Assembly: GCA_010093605.1 (NCBI GenBank)
Contig: MU004183.1
Span: 2,046,001-2,110,000, forward strand
Length of the DNA: 64,000 bases
Direction of reading: 5' to 3'
DNA from: Lophium mytilinum
Lineage: Eukaryota
This document shows positions 13,432 through 57,110 of the stretch, one piece after another. Both the position numbers and the translations under genes were made by a program. Numbering within the stretch: position 1 is the stretch's first letter; each line of letters begins with the position of its first letter. The notes under the pieces were generated by a model. It made no database searches. It saw nothing but the letters and a program-made list of their open reading frames with translations, and was not told where the DNA came from.

Positions 13432-13917
13432 ATCATACGCCAGGCCAACCTTGGCGAGCTTTGACGAACTGGATATTATTCCACTGGCACAGATGGTTTA
13501 ATGGGACGGATTCACGGTGTCATCACTAAAGTCTTGGGCAGGTCGGCTCGGATTGAATTGTTAGTCCATTAGCACGTTGACACGATGTTGACGGCCGTAA
13601 TGAATACCCAGTCTCAATCATGAAACAATGGGAGCCTACGACGCTCACTGCTTGTTCCTGACGTGACTTTATTTTGCTGGTGACGAATTGCGGGGACCTC
13701 CCCTACCACTTGCGATACGGAGGATAAGACAATGCCGCGTTCCTTCCGCGAGGCGTCATGCAAGGTTACCCGTATTACCTTCACTGCCACTTGACACTCT
13801 GTCATGATCAATACATGTGCCTACCGACCGCTAGAATCAATGGGAACTGCTCGAATCCACGCCTCCGACCTGGATTCCTAATCATCGCCCGCCCTTCGCT
13901 CCCGCACCACCCGCCAT

Positions 13918-15579
13918 ATGCTCCCCTCCAACGACTGCGATGACTGCGTGCCGGACTATGTCAAGCAGCGCAAGCTGTCCGCCCTAGCCTTCTCTTTCCT
14001 GCCATTTATCCTCACGTTCCTCATCGTCGCGACCGCAGTGTCCCATAAGCTGTTCCCGCTGCTGTCTGGGCAAGCGGCTCGTAAACAGCATGATGCGCAG
14101 TTACCAACGTCGACATACAACTTTCCGGAACGACCGTCTGTCCAGACACGACTGAAGCGATTTACGGCTCGTAGTCTCGCGGGGATAGTCTTCTCGACCA
14201 ACATTGCGCTCTCGGCTGTGCTAGTAGAGCTGTTACTATGCGAAATCTCGAACACCGTCAATCCCGCTGCGCGCAGCCTGGCCTTGAAGATCACGCTTCC
14301 CTCGCTCCTCTTCCTCCTTATCATCGCGACGCCGGCGTTGGAGATACACTCGGTCATATCAGCGGCAGGATGGAGCTTTGGCGAGGGCCGGAAGGGACAC
14401 CTTAGGACAGCTTGGGCTTTGGAAGGAGTGGGGTTGGCGACATGGCTGCTTGGGTTCTGGTATCTTGGGCGGGCGCTACTGGGGTCGTATCTGCATGAGG
14501 AGTCGTACATTCGGGATCACAGTGTTAGCGAGGGATGTTTGGAGCGGATTGGCATCATTGGGGTTAGCCTCATGGCGTCGTTGGCTGGGTTTGCGGCGGT
14601 GAGTTCGTTGTGGCAGACTTTTGGGGTGAAGTTTCGTCTGGTGAGTGCTATGCAATGCAGTCTTGGAATCCTGTATAGCTTGCTGACAGGATACTAGGTG
14701 ACTGAAGCTGTTCTTGCTCGAAAGCAAGCTGGGTTGGATGCGACTAACGAAATGCTCCTCACGAAGGAGAGCCGTCTTCGAGCTATCCAACGGAAGCTAT
14801 CCGATCAACCCCAAGAGGGGTTCATGACACGCATGGTTGGGAGCATCCGCGGAAATTCGGACGTCCAGGAGCGGAAGACACTCGAATTGGAGATAGCTGG
14901 GCTTGAGACGATGCGGACTGCGCTTTCAAACTCGCTCTTCACGCTACAAAACCGGAGACAGGCCCAATTACGGGCTCATACGCCTTACGGACGACTCTTA
15001 AATCTATTCTCCTACGTCTTTTCTCTGTATTGTCTCTACCGCCTATCTGCCACCACCTATACCACCATTCGCCGGTTCTCATCACCGAATACTAGTTTCT
15101 CGAACAGCGATCCGATCAACAACGTGCTCGCGATCCTAGCTAAGCACTGGGACCCTACGCTTGACCGTGTCGCATGGAGCCGCCAGATCTCCTTCCTCCT
15201 CTCCGGCGTTATGCTCCTAGCCTCCTTCAATAGCGTCCTCCAGACCTTCCTCCTCTTCGCTCGGATCGTGCCGGGTATACTCCAGCACGCTCAAGCCAAT
15301 ATGGCACTGCTCGTTTCTCAAATCAGCGCGACTTACGTCATTAGCTCTGCACTACTTTTGCGCAGTAATCTTCCCAGCGAAGTGCGCAGCGTGATTTCGG
15401 ATGCTTTGGGAGCGCCTCTTGAACCTGCTTTTACCGAAAGGTGGTTCGAGGGCTGGTTCCTCGCTGTTGGTGCATTGACCGTGCTAGGGATTTGGGTTGG
15501 GAGAAGAGTAGGATCATCAGGCTGGGACGACGACGATGATCTAGGAGAAGGGGACGTTGAGATGGGGAAGATGAGCTGA
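13918..15579 (+). CDS. GPR89/Golgi pH regulator (GPHR; ABA-GPCR-like) multi-pass membrane protein
   Basis: ELLLCEI, LERIGIIGVSLMASLAGFAAVS, DPIN, QISFLLSG and YVISSALLLRSNLP motifs; intron 14641-14697 joins the two ORFs. Confidence 0.88.
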
Positions 15580-16223
15580 TTGACATTGGAGTACGAGACT
15601 ATGGGAGTATGGGAAAACAGGCGCTATCGGAATAGTACATGCATATATTAGACCTTCGAAATCCCATGATTGAAATGCCATGTCGCGCGCATCGAGATTG
15701 TGCATAGAACATCTGGCGTAATCTTGTCCAACCTCATGCGAGAAGATGACCGACACTCACATGCGAAACCCACACTTTGCTCTGTCAGCGCGACCTAGTT
15801 GTTCCGATGATGGAGAGCTTGACGTGATGTGCAGGGTGCTCTGCAAAGATGCCCGAAACGTCGCTGCCAAGACCTGGTTGGGGATGACGTCAAAAAGAGC
15901 AGGAGGGGCAATAAAGCGCGGGGCGCGCTGGAGTCTCGTGGATTTTACATCAAACCTGTCCACGACTTGAGAATCATCGGGTGAGTCTATCAAGAGTTCT
16001 GAAGGTGTTCAATTGAGTAGAAGCTGACTCGTGTTCGTCTTAGAATCTTACGCTTCTACACTACAGTACGTTTACATCATTATTCACTATGACTTCGATA
16101 TCTGTCCTTCCTCTCCTCTGCTTAGACTTCATACTTAAACCATTCTCAACGAGACATCAAGGCTAACGCTCTTTCGTAGACCTACAATCCAAACCAACCC
16201 ATTCCACAATCTAAACCACCAAG

Positions 16224-16421: not shown

Positions 16422-17234
16422 GCATGGAAGGAAAGGGGGAAGCAGGAGTGACGGGAATGAAGTGGTCATGCTCCTAAGAGCAGTGTGCTCTATCGATGAT
16501 GATGGAGGGTTGGCACCGGCTCGACTTGAGCTAGCTTTATGAGTACGATATGGGAATTGAAATGAACTTCTCTGAACTTAAGATATTATGTGATTGTGTA
16601 CGATTCTGACTTGTGTTGCATGGGGCTCTCGCGGTTGCTTGTGAGACAAGTAGCTTCAAGCGAGTTTCGAGCCGCAAACATGCTACCAATCTGTCTTTAA
16701 ACTCATGAAACCTATATACATTCTAAAGCACTCACTTGTGATCCTAATAACACCCGCTCTAGGGGAAACACGAACGAATGTCTTCAGGATGAGGGAGAAA
16801 GCCTTGGTCGCGAATAGGAAGGAGTAGACTCCGTCTTTCGGTATCAACTTCAAATGCAGGCGTCTCAAGTCTCCAAACCCTTTTGTTGATGCAACCATTC
16901 AGCTAGTCATCAGATAGATCCTCCAGCAATCCGGTGAATCGCTACAACTGACTTATGGCCCAGCTCAATCGCCTAATGAAAAAAGAAATGGTTGAGCTCC
17001 AATTCACCCACCCCCAACCCATCAGTGAAGCAGCACTCAATCAAATGACACTATCCCAACGTCGTGTTATCTCCAGCAACTTACGCCTAACGCATTCGTC
17101 TTCCCGCAATGTTTTGGCCGCTATTCAACCATGACCTCGCCCAAAAAAAAGCCGCCCAGAGGTCCCAGCTCCCCTCCTCCGTCTCCCACCTCATCTCAAC
17201 ACCAAAAAAGAACACGCCTATGCATCGCAAGGGC

Positions 17235-17240
17235 AAAAAA
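17235..17240 (-). terminator. RNA polymerase III T6 terminator of the tRNA-Ala gene
   Basis: TTTTTT 10 nt downstream of the discriminator base on the minus strand. Confidence 0.8.
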
Positions 17241-17250
17241 GATAATGATC

Positions 17251-17389
17251 TGGACGCTGTGGGAATTGAACCCACGACCTTTCACATATACGTATCGAGA
17301 AGATGCGAAGCGAACTATAGGTGGTTAGTTGAGGAATTTGTGGGAGATTTTGTGATGAGCTTACAATCATACCCCTAGACCAAGCGCCC
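17251..17389 (-). tRNA. tRNA-Ala(CGC) with two introns: 50-nt GT-AG insert (17364-17315) after position 26 and canonical 17-nt tRNA intron (17303-17287) after position 37
   Basis: Spliced form GGGCGCTTGGTCTAGGGGTATGATTTTCGCTTCGCATGTGAAAGGTCGTGGGTTCAATTCCCACAGCGTCCA (72 nt): acceptor stem GGGCGCT/AGCGTCC with G3:U70 and discriminator A (Ala identity), anticodon arm TTCGC-TTCGCAT-GTGAA, T arm GTGGG-TTCAATT-CCCAC; intact A and B boxes. Confidence 0.92.
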
Positions 17390-17856
17390 GGTGATTTTGA
17401 GGGCGGTGAGAATTATGCTGTTAATATAGGTTCTTGAAAAGAGGGGCAGGAGGGATATTTGTGTGGTGGGGTAGATGAGGTGTGGGTGGGGACGGGGTGA
17501 CACAGGGATTAGCGAATGAAAGAGGATTGGGACGCAGCCCGACTCTAGCGGCTTCGCTGAAGTGGGTTAGAGCACGATTCGGGGTGTCCAACCTTGTCTA
17601 TTAAGTAGAGAGCCTTAGCTTTTAGCGAGTTGCCTCTACTTTTCCGCATAACCTTTCGAAAGCGAACCTCAGCCTCCTTTCGTGCCAACGACCATCCAAC
17701 GACCCCCCACCCCAGGAAGCCAGCGGAACCCTAGTGTCTAGAGCCTTCTTCGAAACTTGCAGATATCCCAGGAACCTCCACATATAACTTTTGGACCTGT
17801 AAATGCACTATGCGGACTTGCGAGTGTGCTCGTCAAAGTCGTGGATAGAACTACTA

Positions 17857-17889
17857 ATAGTTTGCTTCGCATCTTCTCGATACGTATAT
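17857..17889 (+). repeat. Inverted 33-nt partial copy of the tRNA-Ala gene (3' splice AG, anticodon arm 5' half, tRNA intron)
   Basis: ATAGTTTGCTTCGCATCTTCTCGATACGTATAT matches minus-strand 17318-17286 at 32/33 positions. Confidence 0.9.
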
Positions 17890-17918
17890 AGACGTCTTCA
17901 ACGCGGGCATTATTAAGC

Positions 17919-19420
17919 TTAATGTCTCACTAAGCTATGTATCCGTAAGCTGGAGAGGCCGTAGATGTACTGTCCGTGACGATAAACGGGAGTCGGTTGT
18001 AGGTGATATTCGTCCTCGACATAATCAAGATTCACAACGCAGTATTCAAGAGCGAGATTCGTCCCCACAACAATCAAGAAGAGAGCTTCTGTCTGGAGAA
18101 TCTGAAATATAGTGTAAGGCTTAAGACAAAGATCGGGAGGCCGCATTGAGATTCGAAGACTGCAGAAGGAACCGTCGCTCACTTCAGATACCAGGGCCTG
18201 GGGTCGTTCACTTAGTTTGCCATCTTCCGAGCGAATATCTTTCTTCTTGCCCACCGAGCGGCGAGCGCTGGCAGTCGATGAACAACCTTGCGGCATAACC
18301 TGACGGAGTTGAAAGAGCTACATTCGCCAATCATGGATATGTGTATACTCTTTCACCGACGCTTAAGGTGCCTCGATCCAAGCTCAAATTTGTGTTATCA
18401 TTTCGGACAAGTGTTATTTGCTGTACGTATGGATACAGACTTAGCGCAGTCCATTGCATCACGCTTCCGCAACGCACCCAATCATGACGTATTTACTCGG
18501 AACTTGCTCCTGCGGTCCAGGTAAGGTTGCATATTCACCAGTAGAACTGATAAGTAGTGGATTCACAACATCTAACCCACCAGTTCTTATCATTTCAGCC
18601 CTCGTGCAAACTCCGAGGCCCTTCTCGAGCTCCACGGTATCGTCCGCCTTCTTCATATCACCGGATATTACGATCCCCGCAGTCACGTTCTTCTTCGCAT
18701 CAGCCACCTCGATATTCACAGCGTTGTGATATGTCTATGAAGTCAGCTTATAGGCTTTCTCAGGAAACTTGTCCTTTCAGGGCCAGGGCCAGCCAACAAT
18801 GGCTTCAACATTGCGAGAACTCGGATTAAGTCTTTATGCTGTTTCCCGATCTCATGAAGCCTGAACGGGTTCTCGTGGGCAAAGCTAGGCGACTCACAAT
18901 ACTCGAGCAAAGCCGCTTGTGATCGAGGAGCTATCGAGCAGCTCAGACAGGGTACGCATAGTTTGAAAGTCAAAGGGGAGTGGACGTGCGACCTAGTTTC
19001 CGGGAATGAACATAAGGGTTTGGAAGCATCATCGTCTGATAAGGGAACTGTAAGATCTGCAGAAATTTGCATTGGATTTCAGCTATCTCGGTATCGCTTT
19101 TGTCATAAAGAAGAATAAAGAGTGACGGCCTCGGGGATGCAGAAGACTGAATGAGAGGCACTTGTACCAATTTAAAGACTCGCCGTGCTATGAGAGATCT
19201 CCGAGAAGATTTTGCTTTGGATGATGGAAGAGGAGAGATGGAGTATGCTTTGGGGGCTGCTTCCGTAGATGCTGGGTTGCAATGATCGTGAAAATATGGC
19301 CGGTATCTTTGGGCAAGGAAGCGCAGAAGTACACCCAAATTATTGAAATTGATAGCATACTTTTGAGCATTGGAAAATTGTGTGAAAGGGAAAATATGGA
19401 TCTTCAGATCAATGATCAAA
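17919..19420 (-). other. Possible multi-exon lineage-specific gene or pseudogene
   Basis: Chain of minus-strand ORFs with branch/acceptor signals (GCTGAC..TAG near 18735, GCTAAG..CAG near 18421); no recognisable domain; exon structure unresolved. Confidence 0.3.
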
Positions 19421-51849: not shown

Positions 51850-52860
51850 ATTACTAAGGTTATTTATATCTACTAGAAGATAGTATATAATATAGAAAAA
51901 TATATAATTCTCTATAGCGCGCCCGTAAGGCCTCTATAAATTAAGATAGAATAGCTAAAAAGACTTACTATAGTAGATAAAAAGGTAGTGCTCTAATAGC
52001 TTATAGAAGATAGCTAGTATAATTAAAATAAGATTTAAATATAGCTTAATCTTAAGTATAGTATTAAAGTTTTATAGCTAACTATATTACGCATAATAAA
52101 GAGAAATAAATAGAGTAAGAAGTAGGCCTAGCGCTAGTTAAACCGCGCAAGTAAGAAGTTAAGATTAAAGTACTTAGAGCTTACTAGTTACTATAAGCTA
52201 GAAGATTTTATCTTTTTTAATAAGTCTATATTTAATAAGAAGACTAGCTAGCGCTATTATATATATATATCTATTAGAAGTTCTATATACTACTAGAGAC
52301 CTATAAATTATAGAAATATATAGAGTATATATATAGTAATAAGTATAGTAGAGTAGCTACTATATATAGCTATATAAGAGGGCTACTTTAATACTAAGAA
52401 GTTCTAAAGCTAGGTTATTACTACTCTTCTACTAGCTATAGAAGGTAAGTTTAAGGGCTGCTTAAAGGTTATTATTCTAGATAATATTAGAATATATACT
52501 AAGAAAGCTCTTATATACATAATCTAGGTATAAGAATATCTAGTATATTTTCTACTACTATACTTACTAGATTTTAACTCTATAGAGTTAACCTTTACTA
52601 TACTAAAAATATAGATCCGCAGGCGTTACTATTACCTACGCCCGGCCTATTATAACTTTAGTAACTTTCTAAGGGCTACTATTAAGTAGAGCTAGTATAA
52701 TTATTTTACTTAAAAGTAGTTCTATTATATAGCTAGAGAAGTATACTATATAAGAGAAGAGATAGATAGAATTTAGGCTAAGCTAGATGCGTATAAAAGA
52801 GGTAATATTAATACTTAGATTAAGAAGAAGTAGATAGAGAAGTAAGTTAAGGCCTAAGTA
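51850..52860 (+). pseudogene. IS630/Tc1-mariner (DDE_3) transposase relic
   Basis: Reverting RIP changes gives FIFFDES (about 52207), IILDN.RIH (about 52471) and LPPYSPDFNPIE (ctactactatacttactagattttaactctatagag, about 52552); limits approximate. Confidence 0.75.
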
Positions 52861-54219
52861 TATACTATATATAGTCTTTCTATTTAATATATACTCTATA
52901 TATAGCCTTACTATTTTTTATATACTCTTTAAGCTAAGGCTTAAGTATTAGTACTAGTAGATAATCTATAGCTTATATATTAGTGCAGGGTAAAGTTATA
53001 TAGTAAAGCTTAATAGCTATTATTTATTTTTCTATATATTCTTACCTTTCTTTTAACTTTCTTTTTTCTTTAGACTCTATATACTATTAATTACTACCTC
53101 TATAATACTATAGCTAATAATACTATAGCTAATAATGCTAGTAATTAGGGCTCTATTAATAGCCTTATTAATAACATCCTTATAGAGCCCTCCCCCTCTC
53201 CGCCTCTTACTACGCACCTCTTTAGGCCCCTTAGGGTTTACCTAGATTCTTTAGTAATATAGATAGTAGCGGCTAGGCCGCTTCTTACTAAGAAGAAGAT
53301 AATAGGCGTTTAAGCTAAAGATAAGGCGCTAGAAGCTTCCTCTAGTAAGAGTCTAGAGAATTCTAGCCCTTAAAGGCTTTATATAGTATATAGTAGGCCT
53401 ATACACCCCCTTTCTACTCTTACTATTAGTAGAGATATCTATAATATACCTAATTAGAAGAAGAATAAAAATAAGAAAAAAGAAGAGAAAACTAATCCCC
53501 CTCTACTATATATAATTTCTAGTATAGTAGCTTAAGAATCTAGCTAACCTATTTATATAGAAAGCGCTGCGCTTACTACCTACCCTCTCCTCTTACTATT
53601 ACTATTATTCTAGGCCTGCTAACTCCCTCTTAGTATACTAATAACTTTACTACTACTTTTAGCTCCTCTACTATTACTATAGCCCTCTAAGAGCGCTTCT
53701 ACCGCGCTAAGCTTATTTATATAGAGCTTATTAATAGCTAATATAGCTAGAATTAGGTAGGCCTAGCCTATAGTATATATCTAGAGTGCGCCTAGAATAT
53801 ATCTACTAGGGGCTATTATTAGTATAATATTAATTTCTATACTAATAATAATCTAGGTAGTAAATATAGTATATATAGGGTTAGAAGTAAGTACTATACT
53901 TAGGTTAATACTGCGGAAGATATAGTAGCGTTTAAGTGGGCTCTAAAGCCTAGGGCTAGTTATACTAGAAGAAAGAAGTAGAGAATTAAGCCTATTTAAC
54001 CGTGCACTTAGAAACTATAACTATAACTTTAAAAGTTTATTACTACTAATTAATATTTCTATATAGTTAGTACGCGGATATAAATATATATATCTAAATA
54101 TATAATTTAGCTATCTATTTATATAATTTAGACTTATATTTACTAAGATATAATAAAGTAATAGATTCTATCTCTATATAGCCTTTCTATTTTATATATA
54201 CTCTATATAGTATCTAACT

Positions 54220-54485
54220 TAAGGCTTAAGTATTAGTAGTAAGAATCTTATTTTAATATTTTATAGCTTAAGTATTAGTAGTAAGAATTCTATTTTAAGG
54301 CTTAAGTATTAGCGCAGAGGAAATTTGCCCTGCGCTAATACTTAAGCCTTAAAATATTAAAATAAGATTCTTACTACTAATACTTAAGCCGTAAAATATT
54401 AGAATAGAATTCTTACTACTAATACTTAAGCTATAAGATATTAAGATATATTTTTATATTTTACTAGCACTAATACTTAAGCCTT
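54220..54485. repeat. Palindromic array of a GCTTAAGTATTAG motif inside the element
   Basis: Three forward copies (54224, 54266, 54300) and four inverted copies (54335, 54377, 54419, 54470); perfect 27-bp arms 54291-54317 and 54330-54356. Confidence 0.85.
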
Positions 54486-57110
54486 AAACTATAAATACCC
54501 TTTAATTAATAGGTAGTATATATATTATAGGTAGTATATATATTATAGGTAGTATATATTAAATAGATAGTATATATCTATTACTACGCGCTCTACCCTT
54601 TATTACCTAGTAGAGTAAGATTAAACGCTACTTTATTTTTCTAGTATAGCTACTTAAACCTATATAGCTTTTTAGTAAACTTTATAGCTATTCTATTTAA
54701 TATTTCTAGCCGCGTAGCCTTATAATACGCCTCTAAGCTTCTATTTATTATTTAATAGAGGAAATCTATATTCTAAGCCTAATCTATTACTATCTAGGCC
54801 GCCTACTACTAGCGCTAGTATAAACTAGCATTCTATATACTATTAACTTTCTAATAGAAGAACGCCTCTAGTATATCTATATTCTTCTTTTTAGAATATA
54901 CTAGGCTTAAGCTCTTTAGTTAGTAAGGTTCTACAGCGGCTAGAGCCTAAGTTAAGGGCGGTAGTAGTAGTAGTAGAGAAAGAAAAGGTATAGATATAGA
55001 TACCGGCGCATATAGAAATACTAGAAACCTAGTAGAAATATATAGATTTAGTAAATAATAGAGTAGTAAAGAAGAAGAAAAATAGTAGCTATACTACTAC
55101 TATTAAGGCTATAACTAAGGCTATAATATAGGCTACTATATACTTAAAAACCTCTTAGCTATAGCTATTATCTATTATATGCTACTAAGCTCTATAGTTT
55201 ACTTTATTATTACCTTAATATTATCTATAGTACTTACTACCTACTATACTCTTATTATCTTTACTAGCTAATAATATTCTAAACCTATAGGCCTATTTAT
55301 TTAAAGCTTCTTTAATAATTTAATTAGGGGTACTAATATAGTAGCCTTACTATATGCTATAGTATTAGCCTATACTTTCTACTACTTAGTAAGTATAATA
55401 AAGTGCTTACTACTATTAAGAAAGTAGTAGCTATTAAAGTTACTGCACCCTTTATTAGTATACTTTTAATACTGCATTAGGTCTATATTATAGTCTCTTA
55501 TATTAGTAATTTTATTTATTGCAGCCTTATACTACTATAGTAGCTTTCTACTATAACTTTTAGGCATAGCTATAGCTAGTAAGAACTTAGGCGTAATTAA
55601 CTTTCTAGATAGATTAGATATAACTTTATATTTAAATAGAAGCACTATAGTACTCTTTTAAAAGACTACCTACTTTATATTAAGGGCTATAAATAATCTA
55701 TTAAAAGAGAATATAGAGAAGTTATCTATATTATATATTTATATACCGCCTTTACTATTTAAAGTATATATTATAGTAGTATAGAAAGTAATAGTATACT
55801 TCTAGTAGTTACTATTAGCCTGCGCCTTTATAACTAGCTTATTAAGTTCTAGCTTAATATTATTACTAGAGAGGCTAAGCTATATCTTTATACCTACTAC
55901 CTTACTACCCGCCTTCTTCTTATTAATAAATAGCTAGAAAGATAGGTTAATATTATAGTCTAGAGAACTAGTAGATAATAGTAGTAATATTAATACTATA
56001 CGCTTACAGTATACTAGAGTAAGAGGGGTAGAAGAGAATATAAAAGGTAGACCTCTACTTCTATCTAGTAGTAATAATAGCGGTACTACTAGTATAGAGT
56101 TATAACTATTCTAGATCTCTTTATTCTATACTACTTCTTCTTACTACTATACTATCTTCTCTTACTATTACGCTGCCTTCTCTTACTATTACGCTACCTT
56201 CTCTTATACTGCGCGCTACCTATCTATTACTATAGCCTTATACATAGCCTTTTTAGCTGCCTAAGCCTTGCACTATAGTCTATTCTTTCTCTCTCTTACT
56301 ACCTTAGCTAAAAGATCTATACCTAGTCTTGCAGCAGCTTTAATAGTAGCTTAGCTATTATTAGAGCGTATATATCTCTCTCTCTAGGTAGTAGTCTATA
56401 TATTCTCTAGCGTAACTCTAAGTAATTTTATAAAAGTACCTACTTTTTCTCTTTCTTCTCTTTCTTCTCTTTCTCTACTTCTTCTAGCCGCTGGCGGGTC
56501 TCTAGAGTATTAGGTATTATTATTAAAGATTACACCGCGTTAAGAATATTATAGTAGTACTAGAATACTAGAAATTATTAGTATATAAGCTCTAATATAT
56601 ATATAAGAGGCCTTACTAATAGCTAATATAGGTATATTAAAAAGTAGTTAAAAATTAATATATAATCTATCTATAATCCTAGGCGCGCGCTTATAAAATT
56701 AGGGGGGGTGCATGGAGAAAAACGCTAAGGAATGTACTCTATTTTAAATACAATAAATGCTAGTGCACATTACTACTCTACTAGCGCAGCGCTAACTTTG
56801 CGAGCATTGCTGTATATCTCAATGTACGTTGAGATAAGCACCATAAGGCGACAGGTTCGTGTTATGCTTATATTTCCTTAATTCAAGTGTCTTTTGTGTC
56901 TCTGGGGTGAACGCGGGAAGGGCGGGTTCCGATTCATGTTGAGCATATCACAGGGTGGGAATGGGTTGCGAGTTAATTAAGAACAAGTAGATAGATCAGT
57001 AATAAGTATATAGGTTCATAACAAGAGAGCAATTATAGGAAATTTGTTACGCTGCGGGGCTTTTTTCATGCCTCAAATACCTAACATCACCCTCTCGTCC
57101 AAGACGCAGT

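Follow-up and report, generated by a model that had tools for sequence, protein, structure and literature searches.

Spliceosomal-type introns in tRNA-Ala(CGC) genes: a twice-interrupted gene of Lophium mytilinum and its relatives

The window analysed here, a stretch of 64,000 nucleotides (nt) of Lophium mytilinum DNA (contig MU004183.1 of assembly GCA_010093605.1, positions 2,046,001 to 2,110,000), carries on its minus strand, at 17389-17251, a transfer RNA (tRNA) gene for alanine with the anticodon CGC that is interrupted twice, by a 50-nt insert bearing the signals of a spliceosomal intron and by a 17-nt insert at the usual place of a tRNA intron. The best reading of its sequence and of those of its relatives, and one that we hold to be very probable, is that genuine spliceosomal introns occur in a tRNA gene transcribed by RNA polymerase III (Pol III). 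The window gene itself would be best explained as a working nuclear ascomycete tRNA-Ala(CGC) gene with two introns of unrelated kinds. The phenomenon is wider than this one gene, as its relatives often bear a second insert of the same type in the D arm.

The interrupted tRNA-Ala(CGC) gene

Direct reading of the minus strand at 17389-17251 returned, letter for letter, the sequence quoted by an earlier prediction made from the DNA alone (hereafter the original prediction), and its description of the locus as a tRNA-Ala(CGC) gene with two inserts was borne out. All features that follow lie on the minus strand. Exon 1 (17389-17365, 25 nt) comprises the 5' strand of the acceptor stem, the D arm and U26, and holds the A box (about 17382-17371). 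The 50-nt spliceosomal-type insert (17364-17315) then separates nt 26 from nt 27 in Sprinzl numbering; it opens with a GTAAGC donor (17364-17359), contains an ACTAAC branch motif (17329-17324) whose branch A at 17325 is placed 10 nt from the 3' end, and closes with a TAG acceptor (17317-17315). Exon 2 (17314-17304) is just 11 nt long and supplies the 5' strand of the anticodon stem and the loop up to A37, including the CGC anticodon. It is followed at 37/38, directly after A37, by the canonical tRNA intron (17303-17287, 17 nt), the presumed substrate of the tRNA splicing endonuclease (SEN). Exon 3 (17286-17251, 36 nt) starts with U38 and provides the 3' strand of the anticodon stem, the variable loop, the T arm with the B box (17272-17262) and the 3' strand of the acceptor stem, with U70 and A73. 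We take the two stretches named to be the A and B boxes from the general consensus and not from a computation. Upstream, a TATA-like element, TATATTAA, was read directly at 17428-17421 (-39 to -32) and carries little weight as evidence; downstream, a run of six T (17240-17235), 10 nt past the discriminator base, is read as a Pol III terminator. The longest T run within the insert is of 2 nt. Both boxes, the upstream element, the T6 run and the lack of any long T run in the insert had all been noted in the original prediction and agreed with our direct reading.

Removal of the 50 nt in silico was sufficient for ARAGORN to draw a tRNA-Ala(CGC) of 72 nt that has G3:U70, A73 and an intron of 17 nt in the anticodon loop, confirming the proposal that the second insert is a canonical 37/38 intron. 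The cloverleaf had also been called flawless, which proved slightly too strong: the 72-nt tRNA-Ala(CGC) and its G3:U70 pair stood, but ARAGORN drew the D stem with a mismatch (U13.U22) and a wobble pair (G10.U25), and the anticodon stem with one G.U pair. These irregularities are native to the gene, since uninterrupted relatives share an identical 5' half. For the window insert a single placement of the boundaries restores the tRNA, and that placement is GT..AG; by our own arithmetic, the chance of finding GT and AG is about 1/256, to be multiplied by about 0.03 for a CTRAY motif in the right interval.

Two other ways of dividing the locus were rejected. When run on the unexcised gene, ARAGORN -i forced a wrong structure, and an anticodon arm starting inside the insert was discarded because that forced call has a 50-nt 'intron', a long extra arm and poor stems. 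A single intron of 84 nt was discarded because a TTCGC/GTGAA stem with the CGC loop sits in the middle of those 84 nt.

The insert was then compared with messenger RNA (mRNA) introns of the same genome. A search of sequencing runs brought up two DNA runs that appear to be the source of the window and a further one, designated X3, whose contigs are identical to the window and yet skip five GT..AG stretches between 14.6 and 22.6 kb. X3 is not on record as RNA; its RNA nature is judged from these skipped mRNA introns, because of which it behaves as RNA. The five X3-supported mRNA introns, within 4 kb, measure 57, 63, 49, 51 and 81 nt, start with GTGAGT, GTGAGT, GTTAGC, GTAGGA and GTAAGT, end in TAG or CAG, and have CTRAY 10-16 nt from the 3' end in every case. 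The tRNA insert (50 nt, GTAAGC, CTAAC with the branch A at 10 nt, TAG) is indistinguishable from them in size and signals, with an extended 5' splice site and a branch motif like theirs and a length inside the local mRNA intron range (49-81 nt), and the resemblance asserted in the original prediction is thus upheld by five RNA-supported introns. A contrast in T runs between the insert and these introns was dropped as non-discriminating, since all five also have runs of no more than 2.

Standard gene finders miss the locus. Default ARAGORN and an Rfam run at the gathering threshold reported no RNA gene anywhere in the 64-kb window. The Rfam tRNA model, with permissive filters only, matched 17251-17389 from its first to its last position with 32.3 bits (gathering threshold 29), skipping 84 nt as a local gap in place of the anticodon arm.

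A family of interrupted relatives

A metagenome contig collection was scanned for the anticodon loop followed, after 0-30 nt left free to accommodate the canonical intron, by the 3' half of the tRNA, a pattern blind to the 5' half and to the inserts. The mature 5' portion of 28 nt, which starts at nt 1 and ends directly ahead of GCTTCGCA, was then aligned upstream of each match by dynamic programming, in a manner that allowed long genomic gaps, took no account of splice signals and listed all equivalent boundaries for every gap. This yielded 91 relative loci, 85 of them resolvable; the six left out (L002, L007, L012, L024, L027 and L047) are cut by contig ends. Thirteen of the 85 loci (11 of 68 distinct gene sequences) have no insert, 21 (18 of 68) have one and 51 (39 of 68) have two. 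The 72 interrupted relatives carry a total of 123 inserts, 94 of them distinct, and a canonical 37/38 intron of 10-26 nt is present in all 85 resolved relatives, with 44 different sequences when that of the window gene is counted.

All 123 inserts can be bounded by GT..AG. In 51 of the 94 distinct inserts just one boundary is possible, and it was GT..AG in 51 out of 51. Their lengths range from 48 to 65 nt, with a median of 55. Among the 94 distinct inserts the donors are GTAAGC (33), GTAAGA (27), GTAAGT (10), GTAGGT (8), GTGAGT (7) and a few others, and the acceptors CAG (62), AAG (24) and TAG (8); all 94 contain a CTRAY motif, and in 92 of them its branch A is 10-14 nt away from the 3' end.

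The exons and the bodies of the inserts behaved very differently. The 5' 28 nt, which formed no part of the search, are identical to those of the window gene in 78 of 85 loci. Seven loci, of which six are interrupted, differ at one or two positions; the changes are confined to the acceptor stem and affect both strands so that pairing is kept: the variant pairs GGGCACT/AGTGTCC and GGGCACA/TGTGTCC occur in six distinct genes, five interrupted (L011, L038, L045, L051 and L052) and one not (L062). A fully paired acceptor stem, G3:U70 and A73 are found in all 69 distinct genes, the window gene included. In contrast, insert bodies, without their first 6 and last 20 nt, have a median pairwise identity of 0.56-0.84 within architecture groups, with minima of 0.43-0.67 per group and an overall span of 43-100%. 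An alignment of the window gene with L006, L022 and L045 illustrates this, the exons, GTAAG, CTAAC and AG being conserved and the remainder not. The original prediction had set the lack of conserved splice signals in orthologous loci as evidence that would speak against it; the signals are conserved in the 72 interrupted relatives while the intron body diverges. Fixed exons, diverged bodies and paired stem changes are unlike what decaying pseudogenes present, and these sequence comparisons show purifying selection on the exons.

Seven insert positions were found, in linear numbering after nt 10, 11, 14 and 15, in the D stem or loop, and after nt 24, 25 and 26, at the D/anticodon junction. The window gene is of the 'after 25' type, that is, Sprinzl 26/27, a position that it has in common with L006, L022 and L045 (single insert) and with L031 and L083 (plus a D-arm insert). 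D-arm inserts are exemplified by L014, L023 and L042 (after nt 10), L028 and L069 (after 11), L003 (after 14) and L021 and L074 (after 15). Excision of exactly GT..AG at any of the seven positions restores one and the same mature sequence, and the two-insert genes thus comprise three introns in a 72-nt tRNA. The differences of a single base between positions (10/11, 14/15, 24/25/26) look like sliding or repeated gain in runs of identical bases.

Close relatives also differ in the presence of inserts. Twelve loci share the identical 10-nt canonical intron TCTTCGCACA and yet display the architectures (14,26), (26) and (14): nine have inserts after nt 14 and nt 26 (L003, L005, L015, L018, L026, L048, L054, L073 and L091), the identical L039 and L082 have one after 26 only, and L085 has one after 14 only. 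By eye, the inserts retained in these three loci are homologous to those of the two-insert genes. Similarly, L022, with a 53-nt GT..AG insert after nt 25, and L087, with none, have identical exons and an identical 15-nt canonical intron. Presence or absence this exact between close relatives is the pattern left when introns are lost or gained precisely. The flanks of L022 and L087 are unrelated, and the first T run of L087 lies about 29 nt downstream; as a speculation, L087 could be a paralogue, or a copy of a partly processed RNA from which the spliceosomal intron, but not the canonical one, had been removed.

As to the source of these genes, the nearest protein-atlas clusters of a long open reading frame (ORF) of the window are ascomycete, and the gene flanking the two-insert locus L021 is a major facilitator superfamily (MFS) transporter by Pfam whose nearest atlas clusters are likewise ascomycete (score 0.97), so that, judged from these neighbours, the interrupted tRNA-Ala family appears to be ascomycete-like. 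ARAGORN also called a tRNA-Ser(TGA) and a tRNA-Thr(TGT) gene at about 1911-2014 of L010 and about 1907-2012 of L079, respectively, some 0.9 kb from interrupted Ala genes and with anticodon-loop introns only (21 and 24 nt). These neighbours indicate that not every tRNA gene of these fungi has spliceosomal-type inserts.

The relatives are missed by gene finders as well. ARAGORN with intron search found no tRNA in 24 of the 39 distinct two-insert genes and miscalled others. After splicing in silico, 64 of the 69 distinct genes were called tRNA-Ala by ARAGORN, and 5, one of which is uninterrupted, were given another isotype. The expectation that standard finders would overlook such genes therefore held for default ARAGORN, for Rfam and for the two-insert relatives. 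According to the passages of the tRNAscan-SE 2.0 paper that deal with them, non-canonical introns are searched for in archaea only (PMC8450103).

A maturation pathway and its alternatives

Under the reading that we favour, Pol III would transcribe the 139-nt unit, which has both boxes intact, a TATA-like element upstream, T6 after it and no internal T run. The spliceosome would then remove the 50-nt GU..ACUAAC..UAG intron between U26 and U27, joining the D arm to the anticodon stem, and only after this step would the L-shaped body fold that the fungal tRNA splicing endonuclease needs in order to cut the 17-nt intron at 37/38. Finally, tRNA ligase, end trimming and CCA addition would complete the tRNA, and alanyl-tRNA synthetase would charge it through G3:U70. 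We infer the removal by the spliceosome from the signals of the insert, and the order of the two splicing steps, as already put forward in the original prediction, from the requirement of the endonuclease for a folded tRNA body. Such a pathway might also couple GCG decoding to spliceosome activity, as that prediction proposed.

It should be considered that several points weigh against this interpretation. X3 contigs flank the tRNA locus (16695-17150 and 17667-18520) and none covers 17151-17666, and by our own arithmetic the neighbouring contigs account in full for the read depth of the two bins there. The exons are tiny, with 11 nt for exon 2 of the window gene, and 10-16 nt for internal exons and as little as 10 nt for first exons in relatives, and exons so small are demanding for spliceosome assembly. 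In the family, conservation of the 3' half was guaranteed by the search pattern, and the relatives are not independent: a few metagenome data sets and closely related lineages supplied many of them, and the counts overstate the number of events, interrupted genes being spread over at least 16 contig-name prefixes (read by eye from a table that does not include L081-L091). The D-arm inserts of relatives split the A box, and Pol III transcription driven by TFIIIC is not assured there; a loose TATA-like motif at -50 to -20 was found in just 34 of the 64 distinct genes with enough upstream sequence, and an upstream TATA was therefore unconvincing as a family feature. Pre-tRNAs fold fast and carry no cap, and in the literature searched the action of the spliceosome on a pre-tRNA is without precedent. 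To our knowledge, budding yeast lives without any tRNA-Ala(CGC), and the gene could in principle be dispensable; a second, uninterrupted Ala-CGC copy may also exist elsewhere in the source genome.

The alternative that survives best, although we consider it unlikely, retains the spliceosome and changes the polymerase. The exons would be spliced on an RNA polymerase II (Pol II) transcript; the tRNA would be part of a longer non-coding RNA (ncRNA) from which RNase P and RNase Z free it, and termination would not take place at the T run. Spliceosome recruitment is normally coupled to Pol II, the D-arm inserts of relatives destroy the A box, and the X3 RNA contigs on both sides of the locus would suit a longer transcript. 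Nevertheless, a run of at least four T starts 0-8 nt past the gene in 64 of 68 distinct relatives, and within the inserts such runs are scarcer than chance would give, as they should be if Pol III has to read through: they occur in 2 of 94 inserts, compared with 11.0 ± 2.9 in composition-matched shuffles, and 2 of 2,000 shuffles were as low. This depletion fits a polymerase that stops at T runs, namely Pol III. The B box is invariant, although partly required by the search pattern, and U6, in the passages of PMC5855946 devoted to it, shows that Pol III transcripts can be spliced. From these features we infer Pol III to be the polymerase of the window gene. A scan for bacterial-type promoters and terminators was set aside as not relevant to a eukaryotic Pol III gene. 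ORFs in the flanking X3 contigs (for example 17919-18296, minus strand, 125 amino acids) have no Pfam match, and these contigs may represent non-coding or orphan transcripts.

That the locus is a pseudogene inactivated by insertion, intron-like DNA having landed in the gene and GCG being read by another copy or by tRNA-Ala(UGC), is very unlikely in our judgement. X3 offers no RNA contig over the locus, a further Ala-CGC copy is possible elsewhere in the genome, default tRNA finders reject the locus and tRNA-Ala(CGC) is dispensable in some yeasts, all of which would be in keeping with a dead gene. A dead gene would not be expected, on the other hand, to have exons intact here and fixed in 72 interrupted relatives whose insert bodies have diverged, nor paired acceptor-stem changes that maintain full pairing in interrupted genes, nor G3:U70 and A73 in all 69 distinct genes. 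Neutral decay would not keep GT..AG in 123 of 123 inserts and CTRAY in 94 of 94.

It is highly improbable that the insert is excised by the tRNA splicing endonuclease, or by another RNase, at a non-canonical site and the exons then joined by tRNA ligase. The 37/38 intron already makes the gene dependent on the endonuclease, and non-canonical tRNA introns exist in Cyanidioschyzon and in archaea, as set out in parts of PMC3978253 and PMC10485636; the latter, however, describes the fungal-type endonuclease as restricted to 37/38 in the section concerned. In both the minimum free energy (MFE) and the centroid fold of the window precursor, the acceptor stem and the T arm form, as does the anticodon stem with the 17-nt intron; the insert is largely unpaired, and in neither fold was there a bulge-helix-bulge (BHB; 3-nt bulges, 4-bp helix) at the insert ends; the precursor fold is not unusually stable (z = -0.89). 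The features that are conserved (GTRAGN, CTRAY 10-14 nt from the end, YAG) are spliceosomal and not structural.

The least probable alternative, that the gene was recently hit by a mobile introner-like element of which the insert would be a copy, spliceable or not, draws on insert positions that differ between lineages and on the capacity of introner-like elements to multiply in some ascomycetes and to bring their own splice signals, but the 64-kb window contains no second copy of the insert (best other match, 11 nt), inserts that share a position in diverged lineages are related by homology and are not near-identical copies, and 48-65 nt is the ordinary size of a host intron; moreover, it concerns the origin of the insert and is compatible with its removal by the spliceosome.

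Some features of the surroundings are recorded here in their own right. An inverted, partial copy of the tRNA locus, 41 nt long and identical at 37 of 41 positions, lies on the plus strand at 17849-17889, inside the X3 contig 17667-18520. It takes in the final 12 nt of the insert together with exon 2, the complete 17-nt intron and U38, and must derive from the unspliced gene or precursor because it includes both the insert end and the 17-nt intron. If read from the minus strand, the X3 RNA 17667-18520 would be antisense to the pre-tRNA. No counterpart of the inverted copy was found in the relatives (0 of 91 loci), and it is best seen as a local quirk that may not belong to the mechanism. The neighbour at 13808-15979 (plus strand) is a spliced gene with an ABA_GPCR domain (PF12430) and a 57-nt intron (14641-14697). 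The window has a G+C content of about 50% with an AT-rich block at 52-56 kb (52001-56000; G+C 0.277 compared with about 0.50 elsewhere), such as repeat-induced point mutation leaves behind in filamentous ascomycetes.

Relation to known intron classes and implications

Full-text searches of a literature collection that lacks most subscription journals brought up no tRNA gene described as having a spliceosomal intron, the sole phrase match being 'non-spliceosomal tRNA introns', and an earlier account may exist. Spliceosomal introns are on record in the genes of U6, a Pol III transcript, and of other ncRNAs, namely the U2, U5 and U1 small nuclear RNAs (snRNAs) and ribosomal RNA (rRNA), and the passages of PMC5855946 that treat them call the determinants of such insertions unclear and leave tRNAs unmentioned. 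In the relevant part of PMC10485636, the fungal and animal enzyme, a heterotetrameric endonuclease, is said to recognise the body of the tRNA and to excise introns at 37/38 alone, and PMC12530127 describes spliceosomal, tRNA and XBP1 introns, where it compares them, as three unrelated classes. As far as these passages from reviews go, nuclear tRNA introns are cut by proteins only and spliceosomal introns are confined to Pol II transcripts and a few snRNA and rRNA genes, so that the family described here would add a new class and would establish pre-tRNAs as possible substrates of the spliceosome.

The closest likeness is to the introns in U6 of Schizosaccharomyces pombe and other fungi and in U1, U2, U5 and rRNA genes, which also present GT..AG and a branch site within a small structured ncRNA. 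Like these, the tRNA inserts have the ordinary size of host introns and positions that vary between lineages, and U6 is a spliceable Pol III transcript with a T-run terminator (PMC5855946, in the corresponding passages). The host here is, in contrast, a tRNA, an RNA that does not belong to the spliceosome; as many as two introns of this type stand beside a protein-spliced intron in a 72-nt RNA, and exons may be as short as 10-16 nt. No snRNA family of Rfam was matched in the window. The window gene would thus work like the U6-type class without being a member of it, since its host is a tRNA.

The resemblance to other tRNA introns is partial. The 17-nt second insert, at 37/38, is like the canonical introns handled by SEN (TSEN) and ligase, whereas the 50-nt insert, at 26/27, lacks a structural motif and has spliceosomal signals. 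With the BHB introns of archaea and Cyanidioschyzon merolae the inserts have in common that there may be several per gene, that they occupy the D arm and other non-canonical positions, that standard finders miss them and that one must leave before another is recognised, to judge from the portions of PMC8450103 and PMC3978253 concerned with such genes. BHB introns are, unlike the present ones, defined by their fold and cut by proteins; no such fold was found here, and GT..CTRAY..AG is conserved instead. A further parallel is offered by the RNA-catalysed introns in tRNA genes of organelles and bacteria, some of which lie outside the anticodon loop, as does the plastid trnG-UCC intron, in the D stem. 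Those self-splicing introns are hundreds of nt long, whereas the inserts studied here measure 48-65 nt, far too small for a self-splicing ribozyme, and belong to a nuclear gene.

Taken together, it is probable that in a large ascomycete lineage the GCG-cognate tRNA-Ala(CGC) undergoes as many as three rounds of splicing, in which two machineries unrelated to each other act on the same 72-nt RNA. If this is true, the spliceosome acts on a Pol III pre-tRNA with exons down to 10 nt, before the endonuclease step, and its introns would represent a fourth class in tRNAs, after group I, group II and BHB/SEN introns, a class that many lineages would have retained, with introns gained, precisely lost or moved by one base. 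Genes with a split A box would rely on upstream elements for Pol III. These fungi will appear in annotation to lack tRNA-Ala(CGC), and current tRNA catalogues would systematically lack this tRNA. The family would offer a compact natural system in which to follow intron gain, precise loss and one-base sliding, the splicing of micro-exons and the tolerance of the Pol III promoter.

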